Below are positions 2,701 to 7,735 of a DNA stretch of 29,786 nucleotides, piece by piece. The stretch covers positions 10,905 through 40,690 of the forward strand of contig CAZEDT010000034.1 in NCBI GenBank assembly GCA_964510795.1. The letters run 5' to 3'. This DNA is from an uncultured Syntrophomonas sp. GTDB lineage: Bacteria > Bacillota > Syntrophomonadia > Syntrophomonadales > Syntrophomonadaceae. The translations under genes were made by a program, and so were the position numbers. The stretch's first letter is position 1; every line of letters begins with the position of its first letter. Below the pieces are notes generated by a model. The model saw only the letters and a program-made list of their open reading frames with translations. It was not told the DNA's origin and did no database searches.

Positions 2701-5700
2701 TTGTCTAAAAAGTTTTTAAGTATAAGTTTTTTGGTATTGATGTTTTTATGTGTGAATTTAACGTTATTTCCACAGTCTACAAATGCAGCCGAATCTATTG
2801 AAGTTTCAACGGTTGAGGACTTGAATAATATGAGTAATAACGTTTACCAAGCTGTTACAATTGACGATGTTAAGCAGTTTTACCTCGCTTGTGATCCTGA
2901 AACCCGAAAATATTCCTTTGTGCTTGGACTCGTTGATGCAGCAACTGGAACACAGATTGTAAATGAGCCAATAATTACGGTCAATGGCGCTATTCCTATT
3001 CCCTTCACTTTAAACTATAATTCCCTGATGCTGGCTGAAGGCCCCATGGGTAAGGGCTGGGGCCACGATTATGAAACCCGCATTGACGAACAGCAGGATG
3101 GTAGCATAAAACTGTCTTGGACTGCTAACCGTTGTAATACCTTCAATCTGACAGGAGTTAATCAATACACATCATCAGACCAAGCCTGTAGATGTGATAA
3201 ACTGATAAAAAATGTCGACAACAGTTTTGATTTAACCCGCAAAGACCAGAGCGTTTATAAGTTTGATACTTCAGGAAAAATCATCCAACAACTGAACGGC
3301 CATGGGCAATCTCTCAACTTTGGCTACAACAGCTCAAACCATTTGCAAACAATAACAGAACCACTGTCTGGAAGAACCTTAACCATTACCTGTAATACAG
3401 CCAATCTAATAGCTTGCATCTCTGATGGTATGATGCGCCAGATAACATTTAGCTATGATGCTCAGAATAATATGACTGGAATTACCTACCCTGATAATAA
3501 GACAACTACCTTCACCTACGATTCCCAGGGACAGGTATTATCGCAAATCGATGGGGAAGGTAAACAAGTATTTCTTGATAATTATGATCAACAAGGGAGA
3601 GTAATCAGCCAGAAAGATGGCATTAACCAGACTAGTACCCTTGTTTACGATACAGGAAAACAGCCAGGCAAAATAGTAACTACCGTAATTAACAAAAATG
3701 GCAAGAGCAAGACATACATCCACAACAGCAAATATGAACTGGAACAGGCTGTAGACGAACTGAATCATACTAACATCTATACATATGATACCAATGGCAA
3801 CCGCACCAGTATAACGGATGCGGCTGCAAATAATACCATTATGACATACGACAACCGGAGCAACTTACTTACTACTACCGACGTGGCAGGCCATACCACA
3901 ACTATGGGCTATGATGACAAAAATAACCTTACATCTATTACTGATACTAATAACAAAACCACTACCAGTAGCTACGATGCTAACAATAATTTAACCTCTG
4001 CGACCGATACCTTAAATCATATTACCAGCTATAGCTACGATATTAATGGCTTATTAGTTAGTGAAACTCTACCCCGATTAGGACAGACCACCTACACCTA
4101 TGAAAATGGTATGTTAAAAACCATCACTGATCCTGTCGGAGTAACACTAAGCTATGGTTACGACAGCGCTGGCAGGGTAGCAAGCATCACCAATGCCAAT
4201 AACAAGACCAGTACCATAAGCTATGATATCCGGGACAACATTATCCAAACCAGAGACCCCTTAAACAATACCGCTAATTTCACCTATGACAGTAACGGAA
4301 ATCTATTGACGAAAACTGACGCCAGAGGCAACACAACCACCTATGCCTATGATGCCAACCTTAAATTGACCAGTGTTACAGATGCTTTAAGTAATATAAC
4401 GAGATATGAATACGATCCAGAAGGAAATTTAACTAAAACTACCGATGCCAGAGGCAACGCAGTAACAGCCGCCTATGATGATAAAGGCAGGCAGATATCC
4501 ATAACAAATCTACTAGGTAATACCAGTAAAGTTGAATATGATGCAGTAGGCAATATTACTGCCCAATACGATGCTTTAAATAAAAAAGCAGTTGCGATTA
4601 GCTATGACAAGCTGTACAACCCCTTAACTGTAACCGACGCATTAGGTAATACAACAACTAACGAATATGACCAATTAAGCCGTCTCAAAAAAACAAGCAG
4701 TCCTTTAAACCAGATTACTCAATATAATTATGATGACTTAAACCGTTTATCACAAAGCACTGATGCTATGAATGGCCTGGCCAGCCAGCAATATGACGAC
4801 GACGGCAACCATACAGCCATGATAGATCCAGCTAACAACACCCTGACCGCTACATATGATCTGGCCGGTAGACTGACAGCTGTCAGTTCCCCAACAGGAT
4901 CTCAACAATATGCCTGCAATCAACTGGGTTACTTGTCAAGCATCACCAATGGTCGTAATCAGAGTAGTGCCTATGTTTATGACGACGCAGGACGCTTAAT
5001 TAGCAAAACTGACTCAGGTGGAACCATTGCCTATACATATGATGCAAACGGAAATGTACTTACTGTGAGTGATACCAGCGGAACTATATCCAGAGAATAC
5101 GATGCACTAAATCGTATAACCCGTTACACCGATACCCGGGGTAACAATATCCAATATGCCTATGACCAAGTAGGGAATATGACCTTGTTGACCTACCCGG
5201 ATGGAAAACAGGTGAGCTACAGCTATGATAGCAGCAACCGCTTAATCCAGGTAACAGACTGGGCAGGAAGAACAACTACTTACATTTATAACCCAAATGG
5301 ACAGCTTACCCAAACAGTAAGACCAGATGGATCAACTGAAACCAGAACTTATGACGATAACGGTAGGATTATTCAGCAAAAGGATAGTACCAAGAATGGA
5401 GAAGTTATCAGTCAGAACGATTTAGCATACGATTCGGCAGGAAGAATAATTTCAAGTAGTCCAGATTTACAAGTATCTGAATCATTAGCTAAGAATAATA
5501 TAACTTATACTACCGATAACCGTCTTGCGAGCATAAACGGGATATCGGTCACCTACGATGCTGACGGTAATATGATAACCGGTCCCCTGAATGGACAACT
5601 AGTAAGCTTTATTTTTGATTCAAGGAACCGCCTTTCGAGTATTGGCAACACAACATACGCTTACGATGCTGAAAATAATAGGATTGGTGTAACAGAAAAC

Positions 5701-6765
5701 GGAATAGAAACTCAATACACGATTAACCCCCATACCCAACTAAGCCAGGCATTGGTGAGAACAACACCGGATGGCAATGAAACGTATTATATTTATGGAT
5801 TAGGACTAATCGGGCAGGAAGAATCGATCGGCTATAGAAACTATCACTATGATCTAAGAGGTAGCACCATAGCTCTAACTGATCGATACGGAACGATAAC
5901 CGATACTTATCAATACGGTCCATACGGGGAATTGGTCAACAAAAACGGTACCTGCTCCATCCCCTTTCTCTATAACGGCAGAGACGGAGTAATGACCGAT
6001 AATAACGGACTGTATTATATGCGAGCCAGATACTATAGTACAGAGATGTTAAGGTTTATAAACCAGGATGTACTCATAGGAAAAATTTCTGATAGTCAAA
6101 GCCTGAATCGGTATGCATATGTTAACGGGCAGCCAATCTCCTTTATTGACCCATTTGGACTACAACTTATGAATTGGGAAAACCTCGGTAAAACCTTTAA
6201 GCAGACAGGGCAGTATTTAGTTTCAAGAGAAGCTGGAGAAGCTTATTTAGATACAATTGGGACAGTAGCAGAGGCTCATGTTATCGCATTTTCGATGACG
6301 GAAGTAGCAGCAGCTGCTGTTGTGGATACTGCTGTAGTCGGGCGGAGGACTTTAAATACAGCTTCTAAGGGTGGGGGAAATGCTAAGTCATTATTTAGGG
6401 GTGAGCGATCTTCTGTAACACCGGATATTACTTTTGAACAAGGTTTATTACCTAAAGGCACTCATGGCAATTTAGAACAACACATAACAAGTAATACAAC
6501 AGCAGGTAACTTCATATCGACAACGTCGGAACGAGGCATTGCAGAACAATTTGCTGGGAAAAATGGTTATGTGTATGAGATTGAAACAACCAATTATATT
6601 GATGTTAATAAGGTACTTGGTGCAAAGTCTCCATTTCCTGAACAAATTGAGCATGCAATTCCAGGAGGTGTAAATCCATCACAAATTAAAGGAGTATGGG
6701 TAATGAAAAATAGTGTTCCGACAGGAGAATTTATCCCAAATCCGGGATTTAGAGGAGTAAAATAA
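2701..6765 (+). CDS. Secreted RHS/YD-repeat polymorphic toxin with C-terminal ADP-ribosyltransferase (enterotoxin A-like) domain
   Basis: TTG start after 'aaggag' RBS; signal peptide-like N-terminus (MSKKFLSISFLVLMFLCVNLTLFPQSTNAA); dozens of YD repeats; RHS core 'YQYGPYGELV...LYYMRARYYSTEMLRFINQDVL...NRYAYVNGQPISFIDPFG' ending at 6159; variable C-terminus has 'LFRG', 'GNFISTTSE', 'YVYEIETTNYIDVNKVLGAKSPFPEQIEHAIPGGVNPSQIKG', which follows the CtxA/LT-A layout. Confidence 0.9.
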   Translation: MSKKFLSISFLVLMFLCVNLTLFPQSTNAAESIEVSTVEDLNNMSNNVYQAVTIDDVKQFYLACDPETRKYSFVLGLVDAATGTQIVNEPIITVNGAIPIPFTLNYNSLMLAEGPMGKGWGHDYETRIDEQQDGSIKLSWTANRCNTFNLTGVNQYTSSDQACRCDKLIKNVDNSFDLTRKDQSVYKFDTSGKIIQQLNGHGQSLNFGYNSSNHLQTITEPLSGRTLTITCNTANLIACISDGMMRQITFSYDAQNNMTGITYPDNKTTTFTYDSQGQVLSQIDGEGKQVFLDNYDQQGRVISQKDGINQTSTLVYDTGKQPGKIVTTVINKNGKSKTYIHNSKYELEQAVDELNHTNIYTYDTNGNRTSITDAAANNTIMTYDNRSNLLTTTDVAGHTTTMGYDDKNNLTSITDTNNKTTTSSYDANNNLTSATDTLNHITSYSYDINGLLVSETLPRLGQTTYTYENGMLKTITDPVGVTLSYGYDSAGRVASITNANNKTSTISYDIRDNIIQTRDPLNNTANFTYDSNGNLLTKTDARGNTTTYAYDANLKLTSVTDALSNITRYEYDPEGNLTKTTDARGNAVTAAYDDKGRQISITNLLGNTSKVEYDAVGNITAQYDALNKKAVAISYDKLYNPLTVTDALGNTTTNEYDQLSRLKKTSSPLNQITQYNYDDLNRLSQSTDAMNGLASQQYDDDGNHTAMIDPANNTLTATYDLAGRLTAVSSPTGSQQYACNQLGYLSSITNGRNQSSAYVYDDAGRLISKTDSGGTIAYTYDANGNVLTVSDTSGTISREYDALNRITRYTDTRGNNIQYAYDQVGNMTLLTYPDGKQVSYSYDSSNRLIQVTDWAGRTTTYIYNPNGQLTQTVRPDGSTETRTYDDNGRIIQQKDSTKNGEVISQNDLAYDSAGRIISSSPDLQVSESLAKNNITYTTDNRLASINGISVTYDADGNMITGPLNGQLVSFIFDSRNRLSSIGNTTYAYDAENNRIGVTENGIETQYTINPHTQLSQALVRTTPDGNETYYIYGLGLIGQEESIGYRNYHYDLRGSTIALTDRYGTITDTYQYGPYGELVNKNGTCSIPFLYNGRDGVMTDNNGLYYMRARYYSTEMLRFINQDVLIGKISDSQSLNRYAYVNGQPISFIDPFGLQLMNWENLGKTFKQTGQYLVSREAGEAYLDTIGTVAEAHVIAFSMTEVAAAAVVDTAVVGRRTLNTASKGGGNAKSLFRGERSSVTPDITFEQGLLPKGTHGNLEQHITSNTTAGNFISTTSERGIAEQFAGKNGYVYEIETTNYIDVNKVLGAKSPFPEQIEHAIPGGVNPSQIKGVWVMKNSVPTGEFIPNPGFRGVK

Positions 6766-7188
6766 ATGAGTATTGAAAAGAAGAGTATTAAGCTACGAAT
6801 TAATGAAGAACCTGTGACTGTTGAAGATTTGATTTTGTGGGAAGAAGCGCCTGACGATGAGGAGATGGTTCTCTTAGAGTTGACTGTTTCCGGTCGGATA
6901 ATCAGTGTTAAAGATGAAAATCTCTTTTCAGCATTAACAGCATTAAGGCAAGAGTTAGAGGCAGTAAGTATTCAGATTTTGTGTAATGGTGCTGCTGAAA
7001 ATGTTTATCCGTCACCAATGCAGATGTCAATGGGGCCAGGCAGATTGGCGTATAAATTGTGTATGGGAGTGCAGACTGGAGTTGCGGATATTGTTGATAT
7101 TTTCGATTGTGATGAGAACTTGAAGTTTGTAACGATAGATGAACAATCAAAATATTACTCGGAATGGATAAAAAGTGTTATGAAATAA
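6766..7188 (+). CDS. Putative immunity protein for the RHS-ART toxin (hypothetical, 140 aa)
   Basis: ATG at 6766 directly abuts the TAA (6763-6765) of the RHS gene; small, soluble, acidic protein; position immediately after a variable RHS C-terminus is the canonical immunity position. Function inferred from position only. Confidence 0.62.
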   Translation: MSIEKKSIKLRINEEPVTVEDLILWEEAPDDEEMVLLELTVSGRIISVKDENLFSALTALRQELEAVSIQILCNGAAENVYPSPMQMSMGPGRLAYKLCMGVQTGVADIVDIFDCDENLKFVTIDEQSKYYSEWIKSVMK

Positions 7189-7669: not shown

Positions 7670-7690
7670 AGATCGATAGTTTAACTGTTC

Positions 7691-7735
7691 CCGCCATCCC
7701 TGCATTGCCTGTAAGGTTGGCGGGCTTTCTTTTGT
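7691..7735 (+). terminator. Rho-independent terminator closing the RHS-immunity-NADAR operon
   Basis: CCCGCCA ... TGGCGGG stem (7691-7697 / 7719-7725) followed by CTTTCTTTTG. Confidence 0.75.

Follow-up and report, generated by a model that had tools for sequence, protein, structure and literature searches.

A stretch of 29,786 nucleotides (nt) from an uncultured Syntrophomonas sp. (assembly GCA_964510795.1, contig CAZEDT010000034.1, positions 10,905 to 40,690), referred to below as the window, carries three consecutive + strand genes: an RHS/YD-repeat polymorphic toxin gene, a gene for a 140-amino-acid (aa) protein resembling the immunity protein TriX, and a gene of the NADAR family. We consider it likely that these genes form a cassette of the Bacillota in which an exported RHS toxin, whose target is likely a nucleobase, is paired with a structural immunity protein and with NADAR as a second, enzymatic immunity factor. 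Comparative genomics and motif analysis lend support to this interpretation. The three-gene arrangement is not due to chance, because the same gene order is kept in dozens of unrelated contigs. The cassette combines known kinds of parts, and in the literature searched we found no description either of the toxin-immunity-NADAR linkage or of NADAR in Rhs or polymorphic-toxin loci.

The last 130 residues of the RHS protein (aa 1225-1354; 6373..6762, + strand) constitute an ADP-ribosyltransferase toxin domain. The Pfam Scabin-like domain PF22596 was matched at aa 1240-1350 (E 2.5e-13; 50.5 bits versus a cut-off of 27), the catalytic R-S-E residues are present (R1233, S1273-T-T, and E1317), and the domain is free of cysteine. 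Compared by sequence with solved structures (phmmer), the domain was closest to TreX, an Rhs toxin of Xenorhabdus bovienii (E 9e-14), followed by Scabin (4e-11) and ScARP. An AlphaFold model built on 22 homologs had a predicted local distance difference test score (pLDDT) of 92.8, and a Foldseek search with the model returned TreX as the best match (template modeling score [TM] 0.86/0.90; root mean square deviation 1.2 Å), with cholera toxin A1, Scabin, and ScARP ranking next. The toxin tip is thereby confirmed as a compact R-S-E class ADP-ribosyltransferase of the TreX fold, as an earlier note on this DNA had proposed for the C-terminus. When the toxin domain was used to query a protein database, all matches were short cassettes, either stand-alone or orphan, and full RHS proteins were absent. 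The C-terminal tail, G-x-[FY]-I-P-N-P (6733-6750), is conserved from Pseudomonas to Clostridia (L001-L054 and P0122-P0165 in our numbering of loci and proteins). In TreX, the C-terminal tail binds thioredoxin; by analogy, cysteine-free toxins with a conserved IPNP tail may likewise need the thioredoxin of the target cell.

The gene directly downstream (6766..7188, + strand) encodes the 140-aa protein (isoelectric point 4.35), which matched no Pfam, NCBIfam, PADLOC, or PHROGs model. In total, 61 relatives were found by a single-sequence search and 208 by a profile search; the best 120 of the 208 profile matches to the broadened immunity alignment are all ∼140 aa long. The family profile aligned over its full length with TriX, the immunity protein of TreX (PDB 8s2m_A; E 6e-25), and the invariant motif of the family, CNGxxxxxYPSPMxxxMG, overlies TriX residues 69-88. 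The window protein has CNGAAxNVYPSPMxxSMG at aa 73-90, of which YPSPMxxSMG aligns to TriX 77-86 and covers the inhibitory segment. TriX neutralizes TreX via a helix (residues 80-86) inserted against the R-S-ExE residues; this blocking of the toxin's active site was shown experimentally, and TriX has no hydrolase activity (PMC11606950). Because the 140-aa protein is homologous to the experimentally characterized TriX, its assignment as the cognate structural immunity protein is supported at the level of sequence, and the claim of the earlier note that it blocks the toxin is backed both by this homology and by the retained plugging segment. With more than 200 members, the TriX-like family still lacks a Pfam model.

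The third gene (7232..7669, + strand), which the earlier note had also recognized as NADAR, encodes a YbiA-type protein of 145 aa. The NADAR domain PF08719 was matched with an E value of 6e-39, and the protein is 50% identical to Escherichia coli YbiA (2b3w; E 2.5e-45). Residues E34, K41, and E111 are the counterparts of E88, K95, and D171, the catalytic residues reported for the E. coli C7 NADAR (PMC11543638). NADARs of several subfamilies, YbiA included, strip ADP-ribose from guanine in DNA and RNA and are inactive on thymine-, phosphate-, or 2′-OH-linked ADP-ribose (PMC11543638, PMC11125620, PMC11833690, PMC12945103). YbiA and the P. nicotianae NADAR hydrolyze the guanine-ADP-ribose made by ScARP, and YbiA-type NADARs also act on cytosine- or cytidine-linked ADP-ribose (PMC11543638, PMC11125620, PMC12945103). 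By analogy, the window NADAR is predicted to be a hydrolase of base-linked ADP-ribose. It also scored above the cut-off of TIGR02464, a model of riboflavin-intermediate N-glycosidases.

The likely target of the toxin can be narrowed from its substrate-recognition (ADP-ribosylating turn-turn [ARTT]) loop. Among transferases of the R-S-E class, position 6 of this loop sets the acceptor, with glutamate specifying arginine and glutamine specifying asparagine or guanine: C3 uses glutamine for asparagine and is switched to arginine by a Q-to-E change, and Q162 of ScARP hydrogen-bonds N2 and N3 of guanine (PMC7827354, PMC11281641). The E-x-E motif of TreX is described as “typical of arginine-modifying” toxins, and the FtsZ residues that TreX modifies are R174, R338, and R379 (PMC11606950). 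The loop of the window toxin reads SPFPEQIE, next to SPWPNQME in pierisin-1, HKWADQVE in Scabin, and SPFAAEAE in TreX, and the window toxin and all of its close relatives have Q-x-E, not E-x-E. Because NADARs cleave ADP-ribose from guanine and cytosine and the toxin has a Q-x-E of the pierisin/Scabin type, we infer that a nucleobase, whether in DNA, RNA, or nucleotides, is the most likely target, and not an FtsZ arginine.

The association between the loop motif and NADAR was then quantified across ∼110 related loci, which came from a genome scan with the immunity profile (55 loci), a metagenome scan with a Q-x-E toxin profile (50 loci), and four context look-ups of toxin homologs. The metagenome profile biases the sample towards Q-x-E, and the E-x-E set was drawn only from the immunity-based genome scan. 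Toxin clusters at 80% identity served as the counting unit, and loci with at least 520 nt of sequence after the immunity gene were counted; two loci with fused genes (L090 and L097) were added by hand, L091 being the same sequence, and frameshifted toxins were missed by the motif regular expression. NADAR lies directly after the immunity gene in 16/19 Q-x-E clusters (absent in 3) and in 0/10 E-x-E clusters (Fisher P = 1.4e-5, a statistic that ignores phylogeny). The 12 proteobacterial E-x-E loci surveyed contain no NADAR, and TreX itself is a further E-x-E case for which no NADAR is mentioned. The enrichment of NADAR genes downstream of ADP-ribosyltransferase-type toxins that the earlier note had proposed to survey is borne out for the Q-x-E toxins, and its suggestion of a nucleobase substrate is strengthened by the pierisin-like Q-x-E loop.

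The NADAR slot is kept across Clostridia, Bacillales, and Bacteroidota, and it is filled by two NADAR subfamilies. One is YbiA-like and 58 to 73% identical to the window protein; the other is 25 to 30% identical to it and matches the structure of the P. nicotianae NADAR (8BAU; E 3e-22) better than YbiA. Guanine-ADP-ribose hydrolase activity has been demonstrated for members of both. The two domains are fused at L034 and L035 (Saprospiria) and at L090/091/097, giving a single protein of 302 to 323 aa whose N-terminal half is TriX-like and whose C-terminal half is NADAR; these fusions lie in separate sub-branches of the toxin tree, representing at least two lineages. At three loci with frameshifted toxins (L004, L011, and L012), both the immunity gene and NADAR are still intact. 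Inside Rhs orphan arrays, the toxin tip, the immunity gene, and NADAR are likewise found together as “orphan” units (L111 and L112/113). Because such arrays mix the ADP-ribosyltransferase cassette with other toxin-immunity pairs (LHH nuclease-SUKH, TNT, and Imm11; L088 3791-4958 and L112 1-2806), the cassette moves as a unit. Both the linkage at this slot and the fusions to the immunity domain support, from comparative data, the two-layer protection with a NADAR eraser put forward in the earlier note.

On the preferred reading, the RHS protein would be exported, probably by Sec, enclosing its C-terminal toxin, and the tip would be cut off at the DPFGL motif that precedes it. Once released, the tip would ADP-ribosylate a nucleobase-type acceptor in target cells. 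In the producer and its kin, a first layer of protection would be provided by the 140-aa protein, which is expected to bind the toxin with its YPSPMQMSMG segment placed into the NAD/active-site cleft, as in TriX. As a second layer, NADAR would remove ADP-ribose already attached by escaped or incoming toxin.

Several observations weigh against a nucleobase-directed toxin with NADAR as its second immunity factor. TreX, the only characterized close homolog, ADP-ribosylates a protein (arginines of FtsZ), and Q-x-E is shared by transferases that modify protein asparagines, C3 among them. At the aromatic position of the loop, the window toxin has F, as TreX does, where pierisin, Scabin, and ScARP have W. 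YbiA is also a housekeeping riboflavin-intermediate N-glycosidase. In a neighbor-joining tree the NADAR-linked toxins essentially form one clade, so that the number of independent events is small and is overstated by the Fisher test. Four Q-x-E lineages are without NADAR (L087/088, L096/099, L100, and L107-109), and in L018 and L110 only a decayed stub of NADAR is left. The immunity gene stands alone, with neither toxin nor NADAR, in 28/55 genome loci, which implies that NADAR is dispensable for protection. NADAR is thus an accessory, not a universal, part of the cassette.

The tree places a NADAR-free group as sister to the NADAR-linked clade, consisting of L104 (E-F-E) together with L099 and L100 (Q-Q-E), with the proteobacterial E-x-E clade, which includes TreX, lying outside both. 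The DNA-contact residues of Scabin were considered as discriminators of these clades and rejected: the NADAR-linked and NADAR-free clades have in common both the aromatic residue of the loop and a lysine ahead of GY. In Q-x-E loci that lack NADAR, Pfam scans of the open reading frames (ORFs) downstream of the immunity gene revealed no macro, ARH, or other hydrolase domain; the matches obtained were LHH nuclease, SUKH, and DUF3297. Directly 3′ of the immunity gene, two such loci have ORFs without a Pfam match, of 220 aa (L099 3733-4392) and 301 aa (L087 1214-2116), which could encode alternative accessory proteins. The loci with the immunity gene alone include L005-L007, L009, L010, L013-L017, L022, L023, and L026-L031, and Leptospira interrogans, Polyangia, and cyanobacteria are among the organisms that carry them. 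The lone genes often lie in surroundings resembling immunity islands, as suggested in Paenibacillus and Oceanirhabdus by adjoining Cys_rich_CPCC proteins. Paralogy of the immunity gene was also observed, with four TriX-like genes lying close together downstream of E-x-E TreX-like toxins in the Pseudomonas Rhs loci L039 and L049 and two each in L037, L040, and L052, all without NADAR.

The points above bear on three other explanations. The first keeps a Q-x-E transferase and gives it a non-nucleobase acceptor, either asparagine, as for C3, or a small metabolite, with NADAR cleaving that N-glycosidic linkage or clearing a soluble by-product. It draws on the Q-x-E shared with the asparagine-specific C3 enzymes, on the variation of targets within the TreX family (the P. 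moraviensis TreX does not modify FtsZ), on the preference of ScARP for mononucleotides, and on a structural study of NADARs according to which the substrates of non-DarT NADARs may differ and may include other nucleobases and small molecules. We regard it as unlikely, since in the NADAR literature considered the reported activities all concern base-linked ADP-ribose or riboflavin intermediates and no action on protein-linked ADP-ribose was found, and since members of both subfamilies that fill the slot hydrolyze guanine-ADP-ribose.

Under a second explanation, the toxin would be a protein-arginine transferase of the FtsZ-modifying type, the 140-aa protein would be the sole functional immunity factor, and NADAR would be a co-transcribed passenger or a housekeeping N-glycosidase. 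The standing of TreX, a modifier of FtsZ R174, R338, and R379, as the best match in both sequence and structure speaks for it, as do the TIGR02464 match above the cut-off and the 28 loci with orphan immunity genes and no NADAR. The window toxin, however, does not have the first glutamate of the arginine-type E-x-E, and NADAR is found in none of the 10 E-x-E clusters. A passenger would not be expected to hold one position throughout Clostridia, Bacillales, and Bacteroidota, to be replaced there by a second NADAR subfamily, or to be joined with the immunity domain in two lineages, all of which makes this explanation decidedly improbable. The third is that the genes act in the cytoplasm, as a toxin-antitoxin or anti-phage module like DarT1-NADAR or YbiA-YarT, rather than as an interbacterial weapon. 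It could appeal to the antitoxin role of NADAR in those systems, to weak matches of the window NADAR to the defense models DS32_2 and PDC-M42C, and to the Prim-Pol remnant next door. It is very improbable for a toxin that is of the R-S-E and not the DarT class and that sits at the end of an RHS protein of 1354 aa whose N-terminus resembles a signal peptide and which has a DPFGL motif for release; the cassette, moreover, also resides in Rhs orphan arrays beside LHH-SUKH, TNT, and Imm11, and the DS32_2 (NCBIfam) match is far below the curated cut-off (85 versus 240 bits).

Beyond the window, the survey permits a broader proposal, to which we assign an even chance: that a clade of TreX-fold interbacterial toxins, widespread in Bacillota and Bacteroidota, attacks nucleobases (guanine or cytosine, in DNA or RNA) and not proteins; that a single Q/E switch at loop position 6 separates nucleobase-targeting from arginine-targeting members of the TreX/Scabin family; and that NADAR is the first nucleic-acid-repairing enzymatic immunity factor of polymorphic toxins, taken up at least twice, from two subfamilies, and joined with the immunity protein in at least two lineages. 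For this family, the TreX study (PMC11606950) concludes that the specificity determinants “remain to be discovered,” and the survey yields a specificity hypothesis with gene sets ready for testing, Q-x-E with NADAR versus E-x-E without it. If the proposal holds, reversible nucleobase ADP-ribosylation would extend from toxin-antitoxin systems and phage defense to contact-dependent bacterial warfare, and some stand-alone NADAR/YbiA genes annotated as riboflavin-intermediate N-glycosidases would gain a physiological role. It would also provide a second, non-homologous case of the “plug and repair” immunity of Tre1-Tri1, and it joins two separate literatures, one on TreX-type Rhs toxins and the other on pierisin/NADAR nucleobase chemistry. 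The cassette occurs in Bacillota and Bacteroidota, including many contigs from human-gut metagenomes.

Among the known systems, TreX-TriX (a type VI secretion system [T6SS] Rhs toxin and its immunity protein; PDB 8S2M; PMC11606950) has the same Rhs-borne, cysteine-free R-S-E toxin of ∼130 aa and the same fold, together with a homologous immunity protein; the plugging segment and an IPNP-type C-terminal tail are conserved. The window cassette thus has the fold, the R-S-E residues, and the TriX-like immunity protein of this system and lacks its E-x-E motif: TreX acts on FtsZ arginines with E-x-E, whereas the window toxin has Q-x-E. TreX is also delivered by a Gram-negative T6SS, while the window host is Gram-positive and its toxin has what reads as a Sec-like N-terminus, and the TreX paper (PMC11606950) does not mention NADAR. 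Tre1-Tri1 of Serratia proteamaculans resembles the cassette in being two-layered, combining active-site occlusion with removal of ADP-ribose, and the fused TriX-NADAR proteins (L034, L035, and L090) copy the Tri1 architecture. The parts, however, are not homologous, as Tri1 has an ARH-type hydrolase acting on arginine-ADP-ribose in place of NADAR, and both functions reside in one protein there and in separate genes in the window, which therefore does not hold a Tri1-type protein.

The pierisin family (pierisin-1, Scabin, and ScARP), with an unlinked NADAR (SCO5665), shares the Scabin-like domain, and the Q-x-E loop of the window toxin is close to that of pierisin-1; the guanine and cytosine adducts that these toxins form are known to be erased by NADAR, which has been suggested to serve the producer as an immunity factor. 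The window toxin, in contrast, has neither the guanine-stacking Trp nor the Scabin-type disulfide. The members of the pierisin family are free secreted toxins of Actinomycetes or butterflies, with a disulfide and a loop Trp; they have no TriX-type immunity protein, and NADAR is encoded elsewhere in the genome. One paper describes ScARP/Scabin homologs as restricted to Actinomycetes. In DarT1-NADAR and YbiA-YarT, as in the window, an ADP-ribosyltransferase toxin adjoins a NADAR that reverses nucleic-acid ADP-ribosylation. Those toxins, however, are cytoplasmic, of the DarT or HYD1 type, with NADAR as the sole antitoxin and with neither an export scaffold nor a separate binding immunity protein, whereas the window has an R-S-E toxin at an RHS tip and a separate TriX-like protein.

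A parallel in gene logic from an unrelated family is Apk2-Tis1-Aph1, built around a (p)ppApp synthetase toxin (PMC10083569), in which three genes likewise encode a toxin, an immunity protein occluding the active site, and an enzyme degrading the product. There, too, the structural immunity gene (tis1) is always present and the enzymatic gene (aph1) is variable, as NADAR is, although the two systems share neither chemistry nor protein families.

The toxin gene itself (2701..6765, + strand) starts with TTG, is preceded by an AAGGAG Shine-Dalgarno sequence at 2686-2691, and encodes 1354 aa. The translation begins with a probable Sec signal peptide (MSKKFLSISFLVLMFLCVNLTLFPQSTNA|AE; 2701..2787, + strand), so read from the residues alone, and export is probably by the Sec route. 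It continues with DUF6531, the usual N-terminal plug region of Rhs proteins (aa 78-145; 2932..3135, + strand; E 1.1e-10, above the cut-off), and with the RHS repeats, for which PF05593 was matched in 19 stretches (E 3e-108) and TIGR01643 (YD_repeat_2x) and RHS_core were also matched. The Rhs-associated core (aa 1072-1154; 5914..6162, + strand; TIGR03696, E 7e-17) ends, ahead of the toxin region, in the autoproteolysis motif DPFGL (aa 1150-1154; 6148-6162), DPxGL being the cleavage motif of Rhs proteins (PMC11606950). Repeat array, core with a DPxGL-type motif, and adjacent downstream immunity gene are all present, as in Rhs polymorphic toxins. Between DPFGL and the toxin domain lies a pre-toxin linker of ∼70 aa (6163..6372, + strand), assigned by sequence only, with a hydrophobic, alanine/valine-rich stretch at aa 1192-1214 (6274-6342; AHVIAFSMTEVAAAAVVDTAVVG) that may help in membrane entry or translocation. 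The overall organization is like that of the WapA-type RHS toxins of Bacillus, which are Gram-positive proteins exported by Sec that begin with a signal peptide, end in a variable toxin, and are followed by an immunity gene. To our knowledge, all characterized WapA toxins are tRNases and have just one immunity gene, unlike the toxin in the window.

The compact operon of three same-strand genes described in the earlier note was recovered exactly, with + strand ORFs spanning 2701-7669 (RHS, 2701-6765; 140-aa protein, 6766-7188; NADAR as the longest ORF, 158 aa, 7193-7669). The gap of 0 nt after the RHS gene stands: its TAA stop (6763-6765) abuts the ATG at 6766, 9 nt upstream of which is an AGGAG. 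The gap of 4 nt before NADAR probably does not stand, since the start at 7232 is the better backed of the two. The ATG at 7193 is without a Shine-Dalgarno sequence, whereas that at 7232 has AAAGG 7 nt upstream, was chosen by an independent gene call on the same DNA (product of 145 aa), and is equivalent to the “MAI[KR]FY” with which all NADAR homologs begin. NADAR therefore most likely starts at 7232, which leaves a spacer of 43 nt after the 140-aa gene. No + strand promoter-like or terminator-like site was found between the three genes. The intrinsic terminator that had been noted at the end of the operon is confirmed (7690..7735, + strand): a hairpin with the stem CCCGCCA/UGGCGGG at 7690-7724 is followed by CUUUCUUUUGU, a T-run. 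The 71-nt stretch 7670-7740, in which there is also a small hairpin further upstream, has a folding energy of -22 kcal/mol (z = -3.1 versus shuffles).

Upstream of the operon, positions 45-2600 (+ strand) encode an 851-aa surface protein with eight Big_2 domains, several of which are near-identical repeats of ∼97 aa; it also contains an F5/8 type C domain and, at aa 666-701, a single RHS repeat. This protein starts mid-repeat and has no signal peptide, and its gene may be truncated or collapsed in the assembly. Downstream, an unrelated 179-aa orphan without a family match (7824-8363, + strand) has its own promoter-like site at 7768-7796. It is followed by a Prim-Pol N-terminal domain (8608-9420, + strand) corresponding to only the first ∼200 residues of phage primases of 700 to 870 aa. 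This piece, right after the toxin operon, looks like the remnant of a mobile element, and beyond it are ordinary chromosomal genes. A prophage or defense-island context was rejected, as the truncated Prim-Pol remnant and ordinary chromosomal genes are all that lies downstream. The nearest relatives belong to Clostridia and other Bacillota, in assemblies from metagenomes. The same DNA is also present in an assembly of a sequencing run, and the immunity protein is recorded on a 42.7-kb NCBI contig.

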